Assembly: GCA_963697875.1 (NCBI GenBank)
Contig: OY969099.1
Location: 2,793,234-2,857,233 of the forward strand
Origin: an uncultured Actinomycetes bacterium
Lineage (GTDB): Bacteria > Actinomycetota > UBA4738 > HRBIN12
DNA length: 64,000 nucleotides
Direction: 5' to 3'
Position numbers and translations under genes: made by a program. The notes beneath the pieces are model-generated. The model made no database searches. It was not told where the DNA came from and saw only the letters and a list, made by a program, of their open reading frames with translations. Every line of letters starts with the position of its first letter. Position 1 is the stretch's first letter. Below are positions 22,045 to 54,569 of this stretch, one piece after another.

Positions 22045-22082
22045 CGACGAGAGCGTAGCGGCAGGGGGTGTGGAGGAGCCGG

Positions 22083-22493
22083 CCTGTAAGCCGGATCCTG
22101 TGCGCGGGGCTCGCGCCCCGCCGGCGACCATCTCTCTCGGCTGCGCGCTCACGCGCCCGCCGCGTCGCGGTTCGCCCGCGCCGTGCGGCCTACCCGGGAG
22201 CTCGAACGGGCCGCCCTCCTCGGTGGGGCTACCGCGTCGCTGCGTGAGCCCCGCCGAACGCTCCCTGCTTGGCCTTGCTCCGGGTGGGGGTTGCCGAGCC
22301 GCGCCGGTCGCCCGACGCGCTGGTGAGCTCTTACCTCACCGTTGCACCCTTGCCCGCTCGCGCGGGCGGTCTGTTCTCTGTGGCCCTGTCCGCGAGGTCA
22401 CCCCCGCCTGGCTCTCGCCAGCACCCTGCCCTTCGGAGTCCGGACTTTCCTCGACCGCGCGAACGCGGCCGCGGCCGCCCGGCCGGCTCCTCC
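22083..22493 (-). ncRNA. rnpB: RNase P RNA (bacterial type A), rnpB
   Basis: The reverse complement reads GGAGCCGGCCGGGCGGCC...GGUCGAGGAAAGUCCGGACUCCGAAGGGCAGGGUGCUGGCGAGAGCCAGG...ACAGAGAACAGACCGCCCG...GGUAAGAGCUCACCAGCG...ACAGGAUCCGGCUUACAGGCCGGCUCC. It contains the universal GAAAGUCCGG (P4 region). The 5' GAGCCGGCC pairs with the 3' GGCCGGCUC to form P1. The ends are approximate to within about 10 nt. Confidence 0.85.
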
Positions 22494-35643: not shown

Positions 35644-36747
35644 TCAACAGCCGAGCCCAGGCGCCTCGCATGTCGAGTCGAGGAGCTCCCGTACGGCCCC
35701 GAAGAACAGGTCGGCAGACCGGCTCCAGGTCGGCAGCGTCTGGCCTCGTCGGCGAGCCCCCGCCGCAAGCCGTTCGCGCGCGATCGGATCCGTGGTGATG
35801 GTCCGGAGGGCGGCCGCAAGCCCCTGATGGTCCCCCGGCTCGGGCATCAGGCCTTCCCGTTCGTGCCCTGCGAGGCGCGGCAGGTTCGCAGCTCGCCATC
35901 CGATCACCGGCAGGCCGGCCGCGAGCGCCTCCGCCCACGCCGTCCCGTACGCATCGACGAGCGAGCACAGAGCGAAGACGTCGGCCGATCGGTAGAGGCG
36001 TCCCACCTCACCGATCGGGGCGGGCCCGCACACGACCACGCGCCCGGACAGATCGGGGGACGAGATCCTCCGGCGCACGCGCTCGGCGTACGCTCGATCC
36101 GGATCGGTGGCTCCCACGAGCCAGAGCGTCGCCGCATCCTCGGGCAGCAAGGCGAACGCGTCCAGCAATTCGACGATGCCCTTGCTCCGTGTCCAGTTCG
36201 CGACGCACAGCACGGCGGTCGCGCGACCTCGACGGAGGTCGAGGGGCGGTCCGAACGTGTCCGGTACATCGCTGCCCGGTGGGACGACGCGGATCCGCTG
36301 CTCCGGTACGCCCGATCCACGCAGGTCGTCCACGAGGCTCTCGCTCGCCGCGATGACGCCCCTCGCACGGCGGTAGGCGAGCCCGTCGAGCGCTCCCTGC
36401 GTCCTCGAGCGCACCCATCCGTGATCCACCCCTCCGGGCACTTGATGCACGATCGCGATGACCGTCACGCCGGTCCGAGCGATCCACGGCGCCGCGAGCG
36501 CGGCCGCGATGCTGTCGAGCAAGACGCAGTCCGCGGACACCGAGGCGCCGCGGACCGCGGATGCCGCCGGCCGGATGCCGGCCGGCCAAGGAAGGGTCGG
36601 GATCGACGTGAACCGGATCTCCGCTGCGTGGGCCGTGGCAGCCCGAGCCATCATCCGGTGATAGCGGTAGCCGCCCGTCAGCCGGCCCGGATCGCCGACC
36701 GTCACGAGTGAGAGCCGGAGTCGCTTGCCGGCCTCACAACCGTTCAC
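35644..36747 (-). CDS. glycosyltransferase family 4 (GT-B)
   Basis: GT4 C-terminal domain signatures are present: ...LVGATDPDRAYAERV..., VFALCSLVDAYGTAWAEALAAGLPVIG and EREGLMPEPGD (EX7E-like). The start overlaps the upstream PTPS-like gene. Confidence 0.75.
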   Translation of the reverse strand: MNGCEAGKRLRLSLVTVGDPGRLTGGYRYHRMMARAATAHAAEIRFTSIPTLPWPAGIRPAASAVRGASVSADCVLLDSIAAALAAPWIARTGVTVIAIVHQVPGGVDHGWVRSRTQGALDGLAYRRARGVIAASESLVDDLRGSGVPEQRIRVVPPGSDVPDTFGPPLDLRRGRATAVLCVANWTRSKGIVELLDAFALLPEDAATLWLVGATDPDRAYAERVRRRISSPDLSGRVVVCGPAPIGEVGRLYRSADVFALCSLVDAYGTAWAEALAAGLPVIGWRAANLPRLAGHEREGLMPEPGDHQGLAAALRTITTDPIARERLAAGARRRGQTLPTWSRSADLFFGAVRELLDSTCEAPGLGC

Positions 36748-37102
36748 GGATGCCTCCGAACGCGTCCTCCGACTCCCACACCCGCACCGCTAGGGATTCG
36801 GCGCCGTCCCTCCTGAGGGGCGCGGCCAACTGTCCGTGCATCCACGCGGCAAGGACCTCCACGGTCACGACCTCCGTCCCGCACACGTCGGCGAGGTCGC
36901 GGTCGCTCGCGCGGGCGACCGCGTCGCCAAGACGTTCGGTGACGACGTCGAGATCGCACACCATCCCCCGCTCGTCGAGACTCGCCCGTTCGGCCACGAC
37001 CTCGACGCGGTAGTCGTGCGGATGTCGCTCGTTCTCGGGCGGGGGCTGCGACGGCATGCTGTGGAACGCACGGAACGAGGCCGTCGCCCCCACCTCGAAC
37101 AT
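36734..37102 (-). CDS. 6-pyruvoyl-tetrahydropterin synthase (PTPS)/QueD-family protein
   Basis: The C-terminal 122 aa of track ORF 36734..37381 is MFEVGATASFRAFHSMPSQPPPENERHPHDYRVEVVAERASLDERGMVCDLDVV..., with the PTPS fold and the zinc-His pattern H..H. ATG 37102 overlaps the upstream gene stop (TGATG). Confidence 0.7.
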   Translation of the reverse strand: MFEVGATASFRAFHSMPSQPPPENERHPHDYRVEVVAERASLDERGMVCDLDVVTERLGDAVARASDRDLADVCGTEVVTVEVLAAWMHGQLAAPLRRDGAESLAVRVWESEDAFGGIRERL

Positions 37103-38094
37103 CAGTACCTCAGCTCGACGTGCATGACTCCGGCCTCGCCCCGGTCCAGGGCGGCGTAGCCGTCCGCGGCCCGGCCGAACGGGACCTCGTCCGACGTCAG
37201 GAGCTTCACGGGAAGATCGCCGAGCAGCTCTGCGGCGACCCGGCGACGCCGAGCGATGTCCCACCGCGCGGCGAGGCGTGCGGGGATCGTCGAGACCTGT
37301 GTGCTCCTGATCTGCAGCCGGCGGCGGTGGAACTCCCTCCCGAGCGGCAGCGACACCTCCTTGGTCCCGTACCAGCTGCACACGAGCACCTCGCCCTCGT
37401 GGCCGAGGAGTTCCAGAGCGCGCGCCAGGGCGGGCGGGTGCCCTGAGGCTTCCACCACGAGCGGCACGCCCGTGCCCGACGTCATCCGATCCACGAGCGA
37501 ATCGATCTCGGCGGCATCGACGGCACGGATCCCGAACCGACCCGCCACCTCACGGCGGTCCCGCCGGACGTCGACGCCGACCACATCGGCCCCCGACCGT
37601 TCCAGCAGCGCGACCGACAGGATCCCCACCGGGCCGAGCCCGAACACCACCACGGGCTGGCCCAATCGAGGACCCGCGTCGAGCGCCACCTGAAGGGCCG
37701 TTTCGACCAACGGGAAGAGCGTCGCCGCGCGCGCGTCGATCTTGTCGACCGGCACGACATCGCCGCCCTCGATGCAGAACAGATCCTGGTGCGGATGGAA
37801 GGCGAAGACCGTCGCGCCCTCGTCCAGACCTTCGGTGTGGGAGACCACGACCTCCCCCACGCAGCTGTAGCCGTAGGCGAACGGGTACGCGAACGTGCCG
37901 CCGAGCGAGCCGATCGTGTCGTCGCGGCTCCAGGCCGGGTCGAGCTCGCCTCGGTACGCCAGCAGTTCGGTGCCTCCGCTGATGCCGGACCACCGCGTCC
38001 TGACGAGGATCTCTCCCTCGGTCGGGGCCGCGACCTCGACGTCCGCGTGCTCCACACGGCGTGGAGCCACGAACCGCAAGACGCGCCCCCTCAT
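37102..38094 (-). CDS. medium-chain dehydrogenase/reductase (zinc-ADH-like, BchC/sorbitol-DH-like)
   Basis: The GroES-like domain is ...VRTRWSGISGGTELLAYRG.... The Rossmann domain is VVVFGLGPVGILSVALLERSGADVVGVDV. The canonical catalytic-zinc Cys are not evident. Confidence 0.75.
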   Translation of the reverse strand: MRGRVLRFVAPRRVEHADVEVAAPTEGEILVRTRWSGISGGTELLAYRGELDPAWSRDDTIGSLGGTFAYPFAYGYSCVGEVVVSHTEGLDEGATVFAFHPHQDLFCIEGGDVVPVDKIDARAATLFPLVETALQVALDAGPRLGQPVVVFGLGPVGILSVALLERSGADVVGVDVRRDRREVAGRFGIRAVDAAEIDSLVDRMTSGTGVPLVVEASGHPPALARALELLGHEGEVLVCSWYGTKEVSLPLGREFHRRRLQIRSTQVSTIPARLAARWDIARRRRVAAELLGDLPVKLLTSDEVPFGRAADGYAALDRGEAGVMHVELRY

Positions 38095-38169
38095 GGGTGG
38101 CTCCTACCCCGAGGCACCGTCGTCCAATCGACGGTTGAAGGGGGTGCCGGGAGGGAAAGCCGCGGATAC

Positions 38170-39510
38170 ATGCCATCCACGACGGTCGCTCCCACCGAGG
38201 TCGCGCGTCTCAGCTTGCCTACCCCGTTCGGAGAATGGCAGATGCGTGCGTTCGACTGGCGGGGCACCGTGCACCTCTGCCTCTCGCGGGGCGAGGTCGG
38301 CGATGGCGAGAACGTCCTCGCGCGCATGCACTCTGAATGTCTGACGGGCGACGTGCTCGGCTCCCTCCGGTGCGACTGCGGGGTTCAACTCCGGCAAGCG
38401 ATGCGGGTGATCGCGGCGGAGGGCCGTGGCGTGCTCGTGTATTCGACCGGCCACGAAGGCCGAGGCATCGGTCTGGCCAACAAGCTGCGTGCGTACATGC
38501 TTCAGGACGACGGACTCGACACCGTGCAGGCGAACCAACACCTCGGATTCCCGGTCGATCGGCGGACGTTCGCCGACGCTGCAGCCTGCCTCCAGACGCT
38601 CGGGGTTCGGTCGGTTCGCCTGTTGTCGAACAACCCGGCGAAGGCGCGAGGCTTGGAAGATGGCGGCATCCGCGTCCTCCGCGTCATGGGCCTGGCGACG
38701 GCGGCCCACACGCGCAACCTGCGATACCTGACGACGAAGCAAGACCTGATGGGCCACGTGGTTCCGATGGGGCTTCCGCTCGACGATCACCTCGGCCCGC
38801 CGGCCGACGTCGGAGCGCTCCTGGGAGCGGTGCGTCCTTCCGGAACGAAGCCCTACGTGGTCCTCAAGTACGCACAGACGCTCGACGGAAGGATCGCCAC
38901 CTCCACCGGGGACTCTCGATGGATCAGTGGCGACGAGGAGCGGCGCATCTCGCATGCGCTCCGTGCGTCGTGCGACGCGGTCCTGGTCGGGGTCGGAACG
39001 GTATTGAGCGACGATCCGCAGCTGACGGTCCGGATGATCCCGGGGGCCTCGCCGATCCGTGTCGTGCTCGATTCGACCCTTCGCGTCCCCGACGGCTCGC
39101 GGCTCCTTGCTGACGACATGGCCACCACGATCGTCATCACCACCGACGCGTCACCGGCCGAGCGTCGTGACGAGCTTCGGCGGAACCGAGTCTCCGTGCT
39201 CGTCGTGCCCGCCGGCCCGTTCGGCGTCGACCCCTCCGCCGCCCTCGAAGCGCTCCACCAAGCTGGGATCCGGTCGTTGCTGGTGGAAGGTGGTGCGCGT
39301 GTGATCACGTCGTTCCTGTCGCTGGGTCTCGCGGACCGGCTGATCGTCGGGATCGCCCCTCGGGTCCTCGGCAACGGAACGGACGCCGTCATGGATCTCG
39401 GGGTCACGGAGGTCTCGAACTCGCTCCGGCTCGAGCGCCGGGCTGTTCACCTGGCGGGCGACGACGTCCTGATCGCCGGCGACGTCGTGCTCTCTAGCCG
39501 GACGGCTTAG
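38170..39510 (+). CDS. GTP cyclohydrolase II (RibA) fused to a RibD C-terminal-type reductase domain; no deaminase domain
   Basis: RMHSECLTGDVLGSLRCDCGVQL is the GCHII zinc motif. VYSTGHEGRGIGLANKLRAY is a GCHII hallmark. The C-terminal half (KPYVVLKYAQTLDGRIATSTGDSRWISGDEERRISHALRASCDAVLVGVGTVLSDDPQL...LLVEGGARV) is a RibD_C/DHFR-like reductase. ATG 38170 is in frame within track ORF 37789..39510. Confidence 0.8.
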   Translation: MPSTTVAPTEVARLSLPTPFGEWQMRAFDWRGTVHLCLSRGEVGDGENVLARMHSECLTGDVLGSLRCDCGVQLRQAMRVIAAEGRGVLVYSTGHEGRGIGLANKLRAYMLQDDGLDTVQANQHLGFPVDRRTFADAAACLQTLGVRSVRLLSNNPAKARGLEDGGIRVLRVMGLATAAHTRNLRYLTTKQDLMGHVVPMGLPLDDHLGPPADVGALLGAVRPSGTKPYVVLKYAQTLDGRIATSTGDSRWISGDEERRISHALRASCDAVLVGVGTVLSDDPQLTVRMIPGASPIRVVLDSTLRVPDGSRLLADDMATTIVITTDASPAERRDELRRNRVSVLVVPAGPFGVDPSAALEALHQAGIRSLLVEGGARVITSFLSLGLADRLIVGIAPRVLGNGTDAVMDLGVTEVSNSLRLERRAVHLAGDDVLIAGDVVLSSRTA

Positions 39511-39959
39511 CCGGGCTTCTCCTCTTGTCCCTTGGAGAATCTGCCGTGGAGCTTGCCTTCCGGGTGGTGCTCGATCTCCTCTTGGCCCTCCGCGAACTCA
39601 CCCTCGTGTACTTCCTCGTGCCCGGGCAGATCCTCGTGCTGTCCCCGAGCGAAGTCGGGCTGCACCAGCCGTTCGGGATCGTCCGGCAGGTCCTCCTGCC
39701 CGCGAGCGAAGTCCGGGCGGGCGGTCGACTGCGGCTCGTCGCCGGGGACCGGCGGGACCACGGGCTCGACGTCGTTCGGATCGACCTCCACGTCCATCGC
39801 TACAACGATCTCTTCCTCCACAACCATCTCTTCGTCGACAGGGGACTCGTCGGTTGGCTCGCGCGGGTCCATCGTCGTGCCTCCTCCCGGGGCGGCCTCG
39901 TTGCCGACCTCTAAGGTGAAGCTTCCCGGGGCGGAGCCGCGGCAAACGACGACCGCCAT
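39507..39959 (-). CDS. acidic, His-rich repeat protein (hypothetical)
   Basis: About 150 aa with pI well below 5. It carries an imperfect tandem motif: PDFARGQEDLPDDPERLVQ / PDFARGQHEDLPGHEEVHEG / EFAEGQEEIEHHPEGKLHGRFSKGQEEKPG. The corresponding approximate DNA repeats are visible. The true start may be Met 29 (about 39875). Confidence 0.5.
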   Translation of the reverse strand: MAVVVCRGSAPGSFTLEVGNEAAPGGGTTMDPREPTDESPVDEEMVVEEEIVVAMDVEVDPNDVEPVVPPVPGDEPQSTARPDFARGQEDLPDDPERLVQPDFARGQHEDLPGHEEVHEGEFAEGQEEIEHHPEGKLHGRFSKGQEEKPG

Positions 39960-39989
39960 CCCGGTGATGGACCCGAGATCTCTGCGACG

Positions 39990-41078
39990 TCAGGAGCCGC
40001 CGAGGCGGAACGCCCGCGGCGCGCGCGTCCGGTCGCCCGACCGATCCGACGACCAGGGCGCAGAGGGCGCGGCCACGATGTTGGCGAGCGCGAGCAAGAC
40101 CGTGTCGTAGTTCACGCGCCAGCCCGCGAAGTCGCGCCACGCCTGATCCCGGTCGGTCCTCAGCCGAACGCCCTCCGCCTCGAGCGCGTCGACGACCGCC
40201 TGCCACTCGTCGCGCGAGACCGAGATCGGGTCGTCGGGCCCCGGATCGGGATCGAACGGCACCTTGAAGAACCGCGCGATCCTGCGCAGGCACAGGTACC
40301 CGGCACGCAGGCAGAACTCCGCCTGCACGTCCCTGGGCCAGTCCACCGTCGAGAGGGTGAACGCGGCGCTGTCGAGCACGGCCCCCGCCGCCGTCACCCA
40401 GTTGTGCTGCGGCTGCGGCGATCGGAAGAACACGAGCGCCGGCAACGAGCTATGGGTCTCCTCCACGTCGACGAACCAGCGCTCCCACTCCATCCACACG
40501 GCGCCGAGCTCGCCCATGCGCTCGAGCGCCCAATGCCGCCAGACCATCTCGCGTGCCGATGGCGGCGATCCCGCGCGCACCTCGAGAGCGGTGACGCCGA
40601 CCTCCCGGCGCGAGTAGGCCGAGTAGATCGCCGGCAGGTACGTGATCAGCAGCGCGAGCAGGAAGAGCCCCATCGCCGCTTCCGTGAACGTGAGGATCGT
40701 GACCGGGAGCCCGGAGGGGTGGGCAAAGCCGAGCGTGAACAGCGAGGAGCCGGAGAGGGTGAAGGCATCGCGCAGCGACAGGCCCTCGACGCCGACGAAT
40801 ACGAGCGTGTACCCGGCGAGCATCAGGATCAGCCACACGGCCAGCGTCACCGTGAGGCTGATCGGAGCGTACGAGGCAAGCCGACGGTCGCGGCGCTCGT
40901 AGTCGAGCCCTCGTGGCGCGATCACCAGGAAGACCCGTCGCATCGTGAGGAAGACCCATCGAGTGATCGAGGACGCCGATGCGCGCGGTAGGACCACCGT
41001 CTTGATCGCCGAGCCCAGGGTCGCCAAGACGATGACAAGGCCCGCCGCCGTGGCGAGCACGCGTAGGAAGGACTCCAT
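39990..41078 (-). CDS. hypothetical membrane protein with a pore-loop-like segment (possible ion-channel family)
   Basis: The start is at MESFLRVLATAAGLVIVLATLG (ATG 41078). Three to four TM helices are present. Between two helices lies LRDAFTLSGSSLFTLGFAHPSGLP, resembling a pore helix and selectivity loop (compare TxGYG). A cytoplasmic roughly 180-aa C-terminal domain follows. The rest of the 683-aa track ORF is antisense to the protease gene. Confidence 0.5.
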   Translation of the reverse strand: MESFLRVLATAAGLVIVLATLGSAIKTVVLPRASASSITRWVFLTMRRVFLVIAPRGLDYERRDRRLASYAPISLTVTLAVWLILMLAGYTLVFVGVEGLSLRDAFTLSGSSLFTLGFAHPSGLPVTILTFTEAAMGLFLLALLITYLPAIYSAYSRREVGVTALEVRAGSPPSAREMVWRHWALERMGELGAVWMEWERWFVDVEETHSSLPALVFFRSPQPQHNWVTAAGAVLDSAAFTLSTVDWPRDVQAEFCLRAGYLCLRRIARFFKVPFDPDPGPDDPISVSRDEWQAVVDALEAEGVRLRTDRDQAWRDFAGWRVNYDTVLLALANIVAAPSAPWSSDRSGDRTRAPRAFRLGGS

Positions 41079-43520: not shown

Positions 43521-44060
43521 CTAGGTCCGCAGAATGAGCCGCCCAGGCGGCGCAAGCCTCGCTACTGTCGTGCCCGGGATCAGCGCGAGCGTGCCAACCG
43601 CCGCGGCGAGACGGCCGGGACCGATCCAACCGGGTCGCTCGGACGTGGTGCGACGTACGAAACGCACCAATCGGAGACGCATCACGACATGCGTGAAGAA
43701 GTAGAGCGACAGCCCGCCACACAACGTCACGGCCGGGACGGTCGCCAGCGGGTCGCGGACATCGTGCATCGCGATCTTCAAGCCCAGCGCGAACAGGACG
43801 ATCCCCGCGATCATCGGCATGTGCAGGTAGCTGTAATGGTCCCGAGAGAGGCGCGCACGGGTCACGCCGCTCGTCTCCGATAGCTGGCGTTCGGCCAGCA
43901 CGGCGTAGACGTCGAAGTACGCCCACCAGAGCGCGGCGCTCACGGCGAGACCGAGGACCGCGTAAGGACGATAAAGGAGCTGTGCGAGGCCGACCTTGCG
44001 CCGAAGACGTAGACCGGTCGTCGACGCCCGCACCTGAATCCCCTCTCTCAGCGGAGCCAC
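43521..44060 (-). pseudogene. truncated low-temperature-requirement A (LtrA)-family membrane protein gene; only the C-terminal roughly 180-aa half is present
   Basis: WWAYFDVYAV...RDHYSYLHMPMIAGIVLFALGLK resembles the LtrA C-terminal half. No room for the N-terminal half exists before the tRNA remnant and the epimerase gene. Confidence 0.4.
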
Positions 44061-51423: not shown

Positions 51424-52169
51424 CAGCCCTTCCCCCACGGTCCCCGTCCGAGCGCGCGGTAGACCCACGCCTCGGTGTCCAGCTGCCCGGCCGCCTTCCG
51501 CCGGAAGAAGAAGTCCCCGTCGGAGCGCAGCACCGGCACCCGCCCCAGCCGGTACCGGTCGGTTCGGCCGGCGCGGTTCGTCCGCCACGCGTCCCGGGCG
51601 GCCGAGACGAACAGCCGCCGCGCAGCGCGGTCGGCGGCGGCCCCGCCGACGGCCCAGGGGTACGCGAAGTGCCGGCACGCCGCGCCGAGCCGGTCCTCGA
51701 TCAGGTCCCGGGACCGCCGCATCTCCGCGTCCGCCTGTTCCTCGCTCACGTCCGCGAGGTTCGCGTGCGAATGGGTGTGCGACCCGACCTCCACGAGCCC
51801 GCTCGCGACGCACTCCCCCAGCTGCCGCCACGTCAGCCCGTCGCCGCCGACCCCGCCGGTGGCGAGGTACAGCAGCGCCGGTACCCGGTGCCGCTCCAGC
51901 AACGGCAGCGCGCGCTCGGCGAAGTCGGGCGTCCCGTCGTCGAACGTGACCACCACTCCGCCGCGGCCGGCGAGCGCCTCGTCCAGCGTGATCGCGTGTG
52001 GCGCCACGTGCGCGAGCTGCCGGTCGAGCACGTCCTCGGGCAGCTCGATCTCCGAGGTCCCGTCGCCGACCCGGTGGTACAGCAGGATCACGACGTCGTC
52101 CGCCGCGCGCCGACCGGGCAGCCCGAACGGCAGCACCGCCGCCTTCGAGAGGGTCCGGACCGCGCTCAC
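51423..52169 (-). CDS. polysaccharide deacetylase (NodB/CE4 family)
   Basis: GTG 52169 overlaps the upstream stop (GTGA). ...VVILLYHRV..., ...VVVTFDDGTPD... (the DD metal motif) and ...GSHTHSH... are CE4 blocks. Confidence 0.7.
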   Translation of the reverse strand: MSAVRTLSKAAVLPFGLPGRRAADDVVILLYHRVGDGTSEIELPEDVLDRQLAHVAPHAITLDEALAGRGGVVVTFDDGTPDFAERALPLLERHRVPALLYLATGGVGGDGLTWRQLGECVASGLVEVGSHTHSHANLADVSEEQADAEMRRSRDLIEDRLGAACRHFAYPWAVGGAAADRAARRLFVSAARDAWRTNRAGRTDRYRLGRVPVLRSDGDFFFRRKAAGQLDTEAWVYRALGRGPWGKG

Positions 52170-53221
52170 TCCCACCCGTCCTCGCGCCGCGGCACGAGCG
52201 CCGTCCCGAACAGTGCGGCCACGACCAGCACCACGGCCGGCGTGTGCAGCACGTAATCGACGCAGGCGTGCGCCCCGACAACCGCGACCGCCGCCGCGCC
52301 GAGCGCGGTCACCGCGTCGGGGCGAGGCACGGCCAGGAGCCGTACGAAGGCCCACCCGAAGACCGCGACCATCAGGAGCAGGCCCAGGACGCCGAGCTCC
52401 GCGCCGCGCTCGAGGAACTCGTGGTGCGCCTGGAACGCGTCGCGGTCCGAGCGGGCCGTCGGGCTCACCCGGGCGAACGTCCCGAGCCCGTTGCCGCGCG
52501 GCTCGGCCGTCGTCGCGTCCCACGCGTCGTGCCACAGGGCCAGTCGGCGTTCGGTGAGCCCCGCGTCCACCAGGCGTTCGGCGACCCCGGTCGGGCCGGC
52601 CGTGGGGTCGTACGTAGCCGCGAGCCAAACCGTCGCCGAAAGCGAGACCACGAACACGGCGGCCATCGCCGCGATCGCTACGCGCGAGGCCCGCGGACCC
52701 ACGAGCGCGATCGCGAGCGCCACGAACGCCAGCCCGACCACCGCCGCCGCCTCGGCGCTTCGGACCGCGACCGCCGAGGGCGCCAGCGCCACGGCGACCG
52801 TCACCACGATCGCCGGCCACCGCCGGAGCGCGCCGCCCGTCATCAGCCACGCAACCGCGGCCGCCGCCAGGAACGCCCCGCTCGCGTTCCGGTAGCCGAA
52901 CGGTCCGCCGAGCGGCCCGGTCGTCAGGTCGAGCCGCCATCGCCACGCGAACCAGGTCGCGCCCACCGCGACGACGGCCGGCACCAGCGCCCGGTGCGTC
53001 CGCGCGCCGACAACCGCCGAGACGACGACCACCCCGGCGACGGCGCCGAGCAGCGCCACGAACGACCCCGCGTCGGTCCCGGTGCGGAGCCCCACGAGCA
53101 GGGCCACGAGCGCCAGCGCGCCCACCAGCACGAGGCCGGCCACGTCCAGCCCCGGCCGGAGCTCCTCGTGGACCCGCGTCGTGACGACGGCCCGGTCACG
53201 CCAGCGGCTCAGCGCCTGCAT
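52166..53221 (-). CDS. O-antigen ligase/polymerase-like (Wzy_C domain) polytopic membrane protein
   Basis: About ten TM helices are present, with a large loop containing ...RNGLGTFARVSPT...AHHEFLERGAELGVLGLLLMVAVFG, which is Wzy_C-like. Confidence 0.6.
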   Translation of the reverse strand: MQALSRWRDRAVVTTRVHEELRPGLDVAGLVLVGALALVALLVGLRTGTDAGSFVALLGAVAGVVVVSAVVGARTHRALVPAVVAVGATWFAWRWRLDLTTGPLGGPFGYRNASGAFLAAAAVAWLMTGGALRRWPAIVVTVAVALAPSAVAVRSAEAAAVVGLAFVALAIALVGPRASRVAIAAMAAVFVVSLSATVWLAATYDPTAGPTGVAERLVDAGLTERRLALWHDAWDATTAEPRGNGLGTFARVSPTARSDRDAFQAHHEFLERGAELGVLGLLLMVAVFGWAFVRLLAVPRPDAVTALGAAAVAVVGAHACVDYVLHTPAVVLVVAALFGTALVPRREDGWE

Positions 53222-54569
53222 GCTCCACCTCCCGTACCTCGGGGTGCCGCTCCCACCACACGGGCGTGGGAACCGCCAGCAGCACCAGGAAGAACGGCAG
53301 CACCTGCGAGCGCTGCCGCGCGAGGATCCCGAAGTTCGCGATGCTCGAGAACCCGAACACGAACACCGCCACGAACACGATCGCCACGGCCACGTAGGGC
53401 TGCCGGCGGATCGACGTCGCGGCCTCCCAGATCCACCGCCACCGCCAGACCGACCACGCGAGCAGCGCCGTCCCCTCGAGCGCCGCGAGGAACCCCTGGA
53501 CGTTCTTCGCCTCCGGAAGCAGCGGCCGGAAGAGCACCGTCACAGCCGCGAGCGGCGCGCGCGTGGGGCTGTCGAGCACCGACGCCTGGAACGACGAGCC
53601 GCCCTGCTGGGTGCGGAACTCCGTGTTCTGCAGCGTCGCGCTCACGCCGCCCTCGTCGTTCACCCCCGCCTGCGCCAGGAAGTCGTTCGTCATCCGGACG
53701 AGGAAGAGCGTCCCGACCGCGAGCGCCGCGAGCACGGCGACCTTCGCGAGGAGCCCGACCTCGCGGTGCTCGGGCCGCGTCGGCCGCACCACGTACCCGG
53801 CCACCGTCGCGATCGCGACCATCGCCGCGATATGGGGCCGGACGACCGCGAGCGCCGCCACGCCCAGCACCACCGGCAACGCGGCGCCCCTGATCCCGGT
53901 CGTCAACAGCCGCGCGATGCCGAACGCCGCGAGCCCCAGCCCGAAGAGCATCCATGCCTCCTTGCCGACGCTCGACGGCCAGAACAGCAGCGACGGCATG
54001 AAGAAGACGAGCCGCGCGTACGTGCGACGGCGGCCCTCCGGGACCGCGATCGCGAACGCCCGATAGAAGAGGAAGAGGCCCCAGAACGCGATCCACGAGA
54101 AGACGAGGAAGGCCCCGACCTGGGTCGGCCACGTGAACGAGTAGACGACCCCCGTCAGGAGACCGGGGAACCCGGTCCCGGTGACGCTGCCCGTCATCGT
54201 GAAGTCGAGGCGATGGAACCGCGCCGCGAACGACGTGCCTTCCTGCAGGTACCGCGCCGCGTCGGCCACCCCCCCGTAGACGCCGAACGCGACGTAGTAG
54301 CGGGCGAGCGATGCGCCGAGCTTCAGCAGCAGGGCCCAGACCAGGATCGTGAACACGCGCGGCTCGTCCTCGCGTGCCGCCTGGCGCCGGAGCGCCGGCA
54401 GCGACACGAGGATCAGGACCGGCGCCACGAGCACCGCGCCCCACGTGTCGTACGTGGACCGATCCATAAGGAGCAAGAGCCAGGCGCTGAGCCCGGCGAG
54501 GAGCGCGAGCCACAGCAGCCCGAGGGGCTGCGTCCGGATCAGGAGTCTGCGGTCGGCAGTGGTCGCCAC
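53196..54569 (-). CDS. polytopic membrane protein (12 or more TM helices), candidate glycan polymerase or flippase
   Basis: The hydrophobicity pattern shows 12 or more TM helices. No soluble catalytic motif is present. The gene sits inside the glycan cluster and overlaps both neighbours. Confidence 0.5.
   Translation of the reverse strand: MATTADRRLLIRTQPLGLLWLALLAGLSAWLLLLMDRSTYDTWGAVLVAPVLILVSLPALRRQAAREDEPRVFTILVWALLLKLGASLARYYVAFGVYGGVADAARYLQEGTSFAARFHRLDFTMTGSVTGTGFPGLLTGVVYSFTWPTQVGAFLVFSWIAFWGLFLFYRAFAIAVPEGRRRTYARLVFFMPSLLFWPSSVGKEAWMLFGLGLAAFGIARLLTTGIRGAALPVVLGVAALAVVRPHIAAMVAIATVAGYVVRPTRPEHREVGLLAKVAVLAALAVGTLFLVRMTNDFLAQAGVNDEGGVSATLQNTEFRTQQGGSSFQASVLDSPTRAPLAAVTVLFRPLLPEAKNVQGFLAALEGTALLAWSVWRWRWIWEAATSIRRQPYVAVAIVFVAVFVFGFSSIANFGILARQRSQVLPFFLVLLAVPTPVWWERHPEVREVEHAGAEPLA

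Follow-up and report, generated by a model that had tools for sequence, protein, structure and literature searches.

The interval 39507-41078 of the 64,000-nucleotide window (that is, the whole stretch of DNA analysed) holds two co-directional minus-strand ORFs (Table 1), and the question it raises is whether the membrane protein encoded by the first and the small acidic protein encoded by the second work together. The earlier note had described an operon in which a possible cation channel is accompanied by a cytosolic partner that buffers cations or gates the pore. Our analysis indicates that both genes are real and, as far as the sequence comparisons go, that the acidic protein is the product of a real but independent small gene and is not a conserved partner of the channel. 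The reading that we regard as probable is that of two independent genes, neighbours by happenstance, one coding for the subunit of a tetrameric NaK-like cation channel and the other for a small acidic protein of a stand-alone family.

The channel gene has a GC3 of 0.915, and a protein identical to its product (P0001) is present in the databases. The acidic gene and the convergent gene for a GTP cyclohydrolase II/RibD_C protein share 4 nt at their ends, and the neighbours of the locus comprise a trypsin-like protease, an aminotransferase (Aminotran_5) and the riboflavin/pterin-type enzymes represented by GTP_cyclohydro2/RibD_C. A scan of the whole window with Rfam matched RNase P alone, away from the locus, and no tRNA was found in the window.

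Table 1. Positions of the genes and of their structural elements in the window
Feature	Residues or length	Position	Strand	Basis or remark
Channel-family gene, stop codon included	362 aa	39990..41078	(-)	ORF and translation; AF2 model
TM1, extra N-terminal TM helix	2-28	40995..41075	(-)	Hydropathy; AF2 helix 2-28
Outer pore helix (TM2)	70-98	40785..40871	(-)	AF2 helix 70-98; aligns with M1 of NaK, KirBac and Kv in PDB profile matches
Pore helix	102-113 (RDAFTLSGSSL)	40740..40775	(-)	AF2 helix 102-113
Selectivity-filter loop	114-123 (FTLGFAHPSG)	40710..40739	(-)	AF2: non-helical, joining pore helix and inner helix
Inner helix (TM3) and cytoplasmic extension	124-169	40572..40709	(-)	AF2: single continuous helix
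All-helical cytoplasmic C-terminal domain	170-350	40029..40571	(-)	
Inter-gene spacer	117 nt	39873..39989	(-)	GGAGGAGG Shine-Dalgarno at 39880-39887
Acidic four-repeat protein gene	121 aa	39507..39872	(-)	Stop at 39507-39509
Repeat 1	53-71 PDFARGQEDLPDDPERLVQ	39660..39716	(-)	Copy of DNA repeat D1
Repeat 2	72-90 PDFARGQHEDLPGHEEVHE	39603..39659	(-)	D1 copy at a distance of 57 nt from repeat 1
Repeat 3	91-109 GEFAEGQEEIEHHPEGKLH	39546..39602	(-)	Copy of DNA repeat D3
Repeat 4, truncated	110-121 GRFSKGQEEKPG	39510..39545	(-)	Copy of DNA repeat D3

The membrane protein was modelled with AF2 as a monomer, and in the resulting model (pLDDT 93.8, pTM 0.89) the elements follow one another in the order helix, pore helix, loop and helix. 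The chain contains three hydrophobic helices, the second and third of which are separated by the segment DAFTLSGSSLFTLGFAHPSGLP (residues 104-125), previously placed between TM helices and likened to the pore helix and filter of a K+ channel. The first helix is followed by a conserved VLPR motif, whose proline (P31) is conserved at 90% or more, and then by an Arg-rich loop that would lie in the cytoplasm, while residues 351-362 at the other end of the chain are disordered.

As anticipated, neither gene has an obvious characterised homologue, since Pfam, NCBIfam and the PDB sequences are unmatched by both products; for the channel, this was seen with Pfam searches that included PF07885 and extended to E values of up to 1 and with phmmer against the PDB sequences. 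Structure-based comparison with Foldseek retrieved NaK and the NaK2CNG variants with a probability of 0.99-1.00 and a target TM-score of 0.6-0.68, the alignments showing about 30% identity over about 88 columns. Moreover, 40 of the 44 weak profile matches in the PDB, each of them individually non-significant (E of at least 0.36), were K+/NaK pore domains aligned in one register, and the same register was found by hhalign against NaK (E 0.033). The window protein itself does not reach the gathering score of PF07885 (Ion_trans_2), its support being transitive through relatives: the family member P0265, which shares 40% identity with it over 356 residues (E 2e-64), scores 34.3 bits against a cut-off of 22.5 bits, and the Ion_trans_2 profile is matched by 7 of 71 family members. 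The outer TM helix, the re-entrant pore helix, the extended filter loop and the inner TM helix that mark the PF07885 superfamily are all present, and structure prediction, fold search and transitive homology agree on a pore-loop protein.

The same elements can be recognized in the family as a whole. In particular, the pore-helix consensus AlelSGssl aligns with the NaK pore helix ALYFSVVTL, and A105, S109, G110, S111 and S112 are kept in 56 to 62 of the 71 members; the inner helix carries G137 at the hinge position, aligned with a Gly of the NaK inner helix (IFIGIG), together with the invariant P149, Y152 and R158-E159. In the filter loop, T115-L116-G117 correspond to the T-V-G of TVGYG/TVGDG, with Ala119 in place of the second Gly. 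Counted over the 71 diverse family members, T115 and G117 are each kept in 69 and L116 in 65, position 118 is most often Phe (F in 40, I in 6 and Y in 6), position 119 is Ala, Val or Ser, and P121 is the commonest residue at its position (30/71). The K+-selective signature T-[VIL]-G-[YF]-G-[D] is thus absent from the window protein, which reads T-L-G-F-A-H, and is complete in only two of the 71 members, P0176 (TLGFGD) and P0265 (TIGFGD), with P0132 (TLGFGV) retaining the second Gly. Most of the members have Ala, Val or Ser at the fifth position of the signature, and the reading as a canonical K+-selective channel was rejected. The conserved features exceed chance: T115, L116 and G117 are kept in 65 to 69 of the 71 members and the dN/dS of the acidic gene, detailed below, is lower than 1.

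The best structural match is the NaK channel from Bacillus cereus (PDB 2AHY/2Q67), which belongs to the Ion_trans_2/K+-channel superfamily and is non-selective, and the filter pattern of the window protein would likewise be compatible with a channel of this type. The N-terminal helix of NaK is short, whereas the window protein has a true N-terminal TM helix; furthermore, its filter reads TLGFAHP and that of NaK TVGDGNF, and it adds a conserved helical cytoplasmic domain of about 180-200 residues that is missing from NaK. The CNG-type filters (TIGETPPP), as found in the NaK2CNG chimeras (PDB 4RO2, 6FIZ and 3K0D) that are among the best Foldseek matches, share with the window protein the T-[IL]-G core followed by residues other than Gly and, a few positions on, by a proline; different from them, the window protein has Phe118 instead of an acidic residue after the Gly, and neither a cyclic-nucleotide-binding domain nor a voltage-sensor-like domain. 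Two more prokaryotic K+-channel relatives with diverged, non-selective filters are NaKTs of Tsukamurella paurometabola (PDB 5CBF), whose filter reads LPMGNGPLSP and which, at about 123 residues, lacks a large cytoplasmic domain, and NirBac; compared with both, the window protein has an all-alpha domain without a solved relative.

In this C-terminal domain, H209, W227, D236 and R321 are invariant, and R219 and S220 are conserved at 90% or more and invariant among the 41 sequences of alignment A4. A profile of the domain found no match in the PDB, and no solved relative of the all-alpha fold was found. The strictly invariant residues (R158, H209, W227, D236 and R321) lie mostly in or just before the domain, its His/Asp/Arg/Ser cluster could be catalytic, and about 95% of the sampled members no longer have the canonical GYG, all of which could suggest that the pore is a relic, a non-conducting anchor or scaffold for a cytoplasmic domain that acts as an enzyme or a sensor. 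However, T115, L116, G117, the SGSS stretch, G137 and P149 equal the C-terminal residues in their degree of conservation, which would be unexpected for a relic, and non-canonical filters do conduct, with diverged filters being non-selective, in NaK (PMC9822992), NaKTs (PMC5052707) and NirBac (PMC4607889). We therefore regard a relic pore as unlikely.

Returning to a conducting channel, the product of the first gene would assemble as a tetramer into a pore-loop cation channel belonging to the K+-channel (Ion_trans_2) superfamily; the outer, pore and inner helices and the filter T115-L116-G117-F118-A119-H120-P121 build a NaK-like pore. By analogy with NaK (TVGDG) and CNG (TIGETPPP), retention of the T-x-G core and replacement of the outer Gly would leave only the inner ion sites. 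Because the filter resembles those two, it is possible to hypothesize that the channel lets through monovalent cations and perhaps also Ca2+, and that its selectivity for K+ is low. The gate would be located at the inner-helix bundle, with Gly137 at the hinge position and the invariant Pro149, and the continuous inner helix would link it to the C-terminal domain, where the polar cluster of H209, R219, S220, W227, D236 and R321 is a candidate site for an intracellular ligand or signal.

As for the distribution of the channel, more than 7,690 proteins belong to the family at 90% clustering, and they come, largely through metagenome-assembled genomes, from Actinomycetota, Acidimicrobiia and Chloroflexota, including Ktedonobacter. 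The named members are all called "hypothetical protein", save one "Ion channel" in the cluster of P0265, and no description of this family was found in our literature searches. The evidence supports the view that the membrane gene is a member of a very large, essentially unannotated bacterial ion-channel family with a K+-channel-type pore and a degenerate filter. More tentatively, and short of an even level of confidence, we propose that the family is a very large class of non-selective cation channels whose opening is controlled by a ligand or signal, characterized by a NaK-like pore, a TLG[F/Y]-x-x-P filter and a new all-helical sensor domain with a putative His/Arg/Ser/Trp/Asp/Arg pocket for a cellular metabolite.

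An effector channel causing abortive infection in phage defence, like HalA of the Hailong system, was also considered. HalA (PDB 9NYI), following the description of its architecture in a review, is a DNA-gated effector channel encoded in a two-gene operon with the nucleotidyltransferase HalB. The window channel has no HalB-type nucleotidyltransferase or other defence gene nearby, and PADLOC gave no match for either of the two window proteins; we detected no sequence similarity to HalA and no likeness of the cytoplasmic domain to its oligonucleotide-binding crown domain. Moreover, other members of the family stand beside housekeeping-type genes (MFS, ABC and DUF2269), and the family comprises at least 3,262 clusters at 50% identity, compared to a Hailong system reported from 70 genera (PMC13434031). 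A Hailong-like defence effector, lacking a HalB neighbour and a PADLOC match, was thus rejected as highly improbable.

Regarding the second gene, the region is overlapped by several long ORFs in antisense or in other frames, and the exact protein sequence is not in the protein database, as could be expected if the acidic ORF were a spurious frame in the GC-rich spacer between convergent genes. This possibility, which the earlier note had left open, is refuted and has a practically negligible probability, since the protein has at least 424 small homologues (profile matches) with invariant motif residues, its dN/dS ranges from 0.16 to 0.72 and is below 1 in all 28 pairs, indicating purifying selection, a strong Shine-Dalgarno sequence precedes the gene, and the same start is called on the independent contig L089. 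The sequence GGAGGAGG places the ATG at 39872 at a spacing of 7 nt, the gene caller picked the equivalent start on L089, and the acidic homologues begin at the equivalent position; from these three indications, 39872 is most likely the start, giving a predicted product of 121 aa. It follows that the 30-bp gap previously reported between the genes holds only for the longest ORF (ATG 39959), the likely start giving 117 nt.

The description of the product as highly acidic was borne out (pI 4.1 and a net charge of about -28, with 24 Glu and 13 Asp among its 121 residues), whereas its richness in His and Glu applies to Glu, the His content being modest (6/121), though H89 and H103 are conserved at 90% or more. 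Likewise, tandem repeats of the PDFARGQ(E/H)EDLP type do exist, but they are four 19-residue units rather than three, with the cores PDFARGQ, PDFARGQ, GEFAEGQ and GRFSKGQ built on F-x-x-G-Q, of which the F, G and Q hardly vary, if at all, over 42 homologues. The conserved residues include P53, F55, A56, R57, G58, Q59 and E60 of the first repeat, invariant in the 12-sequence alignment A1, F74, G77, Q78 and H89 of the second, G91, F93, A94, G96, Q97, H103, P104 and E105 of the third, and G110, F112, G115 and Q116 of the fourth. Corresponding units are visible in the DNA as 26-nt and 22-nt cores recurring at 57-nt spacing with about 81% identity, but the repeat is weak and Tandem Repeats Finder returned nothing.

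Whether the two genes belong together was examined from both sides, by tblastn of the acidic protein against 80 channel-homologue loci (plus or minus 6 kb) and by inspecting the called genes around acidic homologues. An operon, with a cytosolic His/Glu-rich acidic protein that serves the channel as a cation buffer or as its gating partner, would fit the shared strand, the 117-nt distance, the conserved His and Glu residues of the acidic protein and the lack of a terminator-like site in the spacer; in addition, the beginning of the acidic gene is present on L089, an independent contig whose channel is identical. The scan of the locus found no promoter-like site either, and the spacer folds no better than shuffles (z -0.88). 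However, no acidic homologue lies downstream of the channel in any of the 80 loci, including those of the seven closest orthologues (84-86% identity), and none lies within 6 kb in 79 of them; the only match below E 1e-3, in L068, is weak (29% identity over 111 residues, E 2e-4) and lies upstream of the channel match, at a distance of about 1.3 kb. Conversely, tblastn found no channel gene in eight acidic-family loci, and in a further seven the called genes include no adjoining unannotated gene of channel size. The closest acidic homologue (87% identity) has its upstream gene on the opposite strand, the assembly ERZ25039463 (taken as a single MAG) holds the two families on different contigs, and the families differ more than ten-fold in size. 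The acidic gene stands alone in unrelated contexts, and the linked pair was seen in this genome and the identical contig L089 only.

The adjacency is therefore not conserved across the loci compared, and an operon with a cation-buffering or gating partner, rejected and largely refuted as a conserved system, appears very unlikely. Being co-directional, 117 nt apart and devoid of a detectable terminator between them, the two genes may nevertheless be co-transcribed in this organism.

As an independent gene product, the acidic protein is small, very acidic and probably disordered, with [FY]-[AS]-x-G-Q-E repeats and conserved H-E-G and H-H-P-E elements. Neither it nor its 42 relatives matched Pfam or NCBIfam, the repeat profile had no match in the PDB, and the FARGQ motif was not found in literature searches. 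It resembles hydrophilins and general stress proteins (GsiB/KGG repeats, CsbD, LEA-like) in being small and highly charged with tandem repeats of about 20 residues, and it has a hydrophilin composition (Gly above 6%, very hydrophilic; Gly 10/121, or 8%, and Glu+Asp 37/121), which is a resemblance and not homology. Different from them, it is strongly acidic rather than charge-balanced, and its [FY][AS]xGQE ... HHPE motif matches no Pfam or NCBIfam family. In one lineage, the acidic gene is found beside genes for a SigB-like sigma factor, RsbW-like, STAS and CsbD proteins and a PAS-GAF-SpoIIE protein, and this neighbourhood suggests a link with stress. We consider it most likely that the protein is a stress-associated hydrophilin-like or a cation/metal-binding protein. 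As a separate observation, P0364 of this family forms a fusion with pterin-4a-carbinolamine dehydratase, and pterin/riboflavin-type genes also adjoin the acidic gene of the window; it is one isolated case, and the other contexts are unrelated.

From a methodological point of view, closeness on the same strand in one genome is insufficient to establish an operon. With its four F-x-x-G-Q repeats, conserved His and a possible role in stress or metal binding, the acidic protein stands for another family without annotation. Few membrane proteins are understood as well as the pore-loop channels, yet the thousands of bacterial members of the channel family are labelled only "hypothetical protein". 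In this family, a naturally degenerate filter, in which the second glycine of GYG is replaced, is combined with a cytoplasmic domain without a solved relative. The natural filter variants, which range from TIGFGD to TLGFA and TLGI, share one conserved scaffold and could serve the study of how selectivity is lost or tuned. Moreover, the cytoplasmic domain would represent a new gating module, whose ligand could throw light on the sensing of ionic or metabolic state in Actinomycetota and Chloroflexota.

The window, whose G+C content is about 70%, carries on its minus strand two co-directional ORFs, the upstream one encoding a membrane protein for which an identical entry is present in public data (P0001, on a 3.1-Mb contig). 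The longest reading of the downstream ORF begins with an ATG at 39959, 30 nt past the channel gene, and yields 150 amino acids; this was the gap adopted in the earlier note. However, the acidic gene likely starts at the ATG at 39872, because a GGAGGAGG Shine-Dalgarno sequence lies 7 nt ahead of it, the gene caller placed the start at the equivalent position on an independent contig with an identical channel (L089), and the homologues start at the matching position. It follows that the acidic product would have 121 amino acids and the intergenic spacer 117 nt. The scan of this spacer revealed no terminator-like or promoter-like site and its folding no unusual structure; co-transcription of the two genes in this organism is possible.

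Features of the channel/acidic locus and of other parts of the window
Feature	Position	Strand	Remarks
Two co-directional ORFs	39507-41078	minus	ORF analysis
Upstream ORF, membrane protein (channel)	39990-41078	minus	362 residues
Extra N-terminal TM helix of the channel	residues 2-28		followed by conserved VLPR motif and Arg-rich loop
GTP cyclohydrolase II fused to RibD C-terminal reductase domain	37789-39510	plus
Zn-dependent dehydrogenase	37102-38094	minus
6-Pyruvoyl-tetrahydropterin synthase	36734-37381	minus
GT4-type glycosyltransferase	35644-36747	minus
RNase P RNA, bacterial class A	22071-22490	minus	180.9 bits, full-length model match

The earlier note had proposed that the channel and its acidic partner form one system, a pairing that is not conserved across genomes. 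In tblastn searches with the acidic protein of 80 channel loci, taken with 6 kb of sequence to each side, nothing was found downstream of the channel gene, including in the seven closest channel orthologues (84-86% identity). The sole match below E 1e-3 in these loci (L068, 4334-4660; 29% identity over 111 residues, E 2e-4) sits about 1.3 kb upstream of the channel match, and may represent either acidic sequence with no relation to the acidic family or a remote member of it. Eight loci of acidic homologues screened by tblastn contained no channel homologue, and in seven further ones, inspected through their called genes, no unannotated channel-sized gene adjoins the acidic gene. The contexts of the latter are mutually unrelated, comprising a stress-signaling cluster (described below), the end of a cytochrome oxidase operon, an acetyltransferase with BrkB, an ABC transporter, a trehalase, and RmuC with an arg operon. 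Furthermore, the closest acidic homologue (87% identity) and the gene upstream of it lie on opposite strands, and in assembly ERZ25039463, taken as a single MAG, an acidic homologue is located on contig_51067 and a channel homologue on contig_62858. The neighborhood of the channel varies as well, with a trypsin-like protease in the window and an esterase and a ferredoxin in another locus (L090). We conclude against the proposed two-gene system. In two loci of a homologue clade with 63-68% identity (L098, 2370-5585; L099, 2892-5584), the channel gene lies 54-60 nt after a same-strand MFS transporter gene and is followed by a convergent gene for a DUF2269 membrane protein, an order that may be lineage-specific synteny.

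The acidic ORF had been read as a genuine gene, which its homologues and dN/dS values below 1 (28 of 28 pairs from eight acidic-gene loci, range 0.16-0.72) confirmed. The first search with the protein found 11 homologues, and a repeat-region profile retrieved 424 small proteins, 70-170 amino acids in length (mostly 75-140). The product has a pI of 4.1, carries a net charge near -28, and contains 24 Glu, 13 Asp, 16 Pro, 10 Gly, and 6 His per 121 residues. Instead of the three repeats originally counted, the conserved core of about 72 residues comprises four 19-residue units based on [FY]-[AS]-x-G-Q-E, with a conserved H-E-G ahead of the third motif and a conserved H-H-P-E behind it, while the acidic N-terminal half is variable or missing among homologues. 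The repeats claimed at the DNA level are limited to motif cores of 26 and 22 nt, with 57-nt spacing and about 81% identity; nothing more recurs, and Tandem Repeats Finder reported no repeat. No match to the protein was found in Pfam, NCBIfam, PDB, or the literature searched. Most plausibly, it is disordered and acts alone, as a stress-associated protein of the hydrophilin-like or metal/cation-binding kind, the specific role being assigned with low confidence.

In one lineage (L081-L086), the acidic gene occurs about 680 nt downstream of genes for a SigB-like sigma factor, an RsbW-like kinase, STAS and CsbD proteins, and a PAS-GAF-SpoIIE phosphatase; this stress-signaling cluster offers the sole hint at what the acidic family does. 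Another member (P0364, 152 amino acids) also contains a pterin-4a-carbinolamine dehydratase domain (Pfam PF01329, E 4.9e-20); this fusion, a single case, may be coincidental or an artifact of gene calling. Pterin-type genes also adjoin the acidic gene of the window: the channel/acidic locus borders a pterin/riboflavin-type cluster (35644-39510), whose product may be a modified pterin or flavin-like compound.

Elsewhere in the window, G+C content reaches 73-77% at 48-56 kb, where GC skew is negative and AT skew positive, before dropping to 62-63% at 60-64 kb. The high-GC stretch contains long ORFs overlapping in several frames, of which only 52166-53221 and 53196-54569, both on the minus strand and resembling membrane proteins, have a GC3 of 0.94-0.95. 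The minus-strand ORF at 43521-44060 aligns solely with positions 213-327, the C-terminal third, of the 356-position LtrA (low temperature requirement A) profile and may be a truncated gene or have a mis-set start.

As regards the membrane protein, hydropathy indicated three transmembrane helices (about 5-27, 70-97, and 125-150), and the pore-like segment that had been noticed between helices indeed sits between the last two. Direct searches against Pfam, NCBIfam, PADLOC, and PDB (phmmer) gave no match. A profile built from 71 diverse full-length relatives (alignment A2) matched PDB entries weakly (E 0.36-6); 40 of the 44 matches are K+-channel-type pore domains (NaK, KirBac3.1, Shaker/Kv1.2), in one common register, with the consensus AlelSGssllTLGf aligned to the pore helix and filter ALYFSVVTLTTVG, and hhalign against NaK returned the identical register (E 0.033). 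Moreover, seven of the 71 members match Pfam Ion_trans_2, including P0265, which aligns over 356 residues with the window protein at 40% identity (E 2e-64), has the canonical filter TIGFGD, and scores 34.3 bits (gathering cutoff, 22.5 bits). The AlphaFold2 model, which is confident (pLDDT 93.8, pTM 0.89), places a short helix (102-113) and then a non-helical loop (114-123, FTLGFAHPSG) between a helix spanning 70-98 and a single long helix spanning 124-169; the absence of a re-entrant pore loop, which by the earlier note would refute the reading, was not observed, and the pore-loop reading holds. These independent lines agree that the protein is a pore-loop channel and, by fold and transitive homology, a remote member of the Ion_trans_2 superfamily.

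Among the 71 members, the filter core is near-invariant (T115 in 69, L116 in 65, and G117 in 69), position 118 is Phe in 40, Ile in 6, and Tyr in 6, and at position 119, where GYG has its second Gly, most members have Ala, Val, or Ser; Pro121 occurs more often than any other residue at its site (30/71). Few members have a canonical filter: the full form is confined to P0176 (TLGFGD) and P0265, and P0132 (TLGFGV) retains the second Gly. The window protein fails the K+-selective signature. The pore-helix motif A-x-x-x-S-G-S-S-L is conserved, and the inner helix features G137 (66/71), aligned with the NaK inner-helix Gly at the hinge position, together with an invariant P149, Y152, and an R158-E159 pair. 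We infer an N-out/C-in topology from the N-terminal helix, the VLPR/Arg-rich loop, and the canonical orientation of pore domains.

With the NaK-like fold, Ion_trans_2 homology, conserved T-L-G, hinge-position Gly, and Pro established, it is possible to hypothesize a mechanism by analogy with non-selective pore-loop channels, i.e., NaK, CNG-type channels, and NirBac. In the NaK filter, TVGDGN, only sites S3 and S4 are present (PMC9822992); NaKTs (PMC5052707) and NirBac (PMC4607889) served with NaK as analogies for filter and conduction. The protein would form a homotetramer whose filter would retain the inner ion sites made by Thr115 and Leu116 and lose the outer ones, because Ala119 stands in for the second glycine, so that conduction would be non-selective for monovalent cations and possibly extend to Ca2+. 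The gate would be the inner-helix bundle (G137, P149), continuous with the helix running into the C-terminal domain, whose conserved polar cluster is a candidate sensor site. Hailong HalA was considered and rejected, as the window channel is without a nucleotidyltransferase partner and the cytoplasmic domains are dissimilar. The pore would be of the known non-selective pore-loop type, and the protein has in addition an extra TM helix and a cytoplasmic domain without a solved relative.

The literature searched yielded no description of this family, and the names seen were all "hypothetical protein," except for one "Ion channel" in a canonical-filter cluster. A word-indexed search with the channel protein found more than 7,690 proteins, and an exhaustive one, with E up to 1e-3, retrieved 3,262 clusters (50% identity), 468 of them with E below 1e-30; the full-length architecture is retained. 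Genomes with matches belong to Actinomycetota, Acidimicrobiia, and Chloroflexota, including Ktedonobacter racemifer and Anaerolineae. What is notable is the size of this unannotated channel family and its new putative gating domain, the pore itself being a familiar theme.
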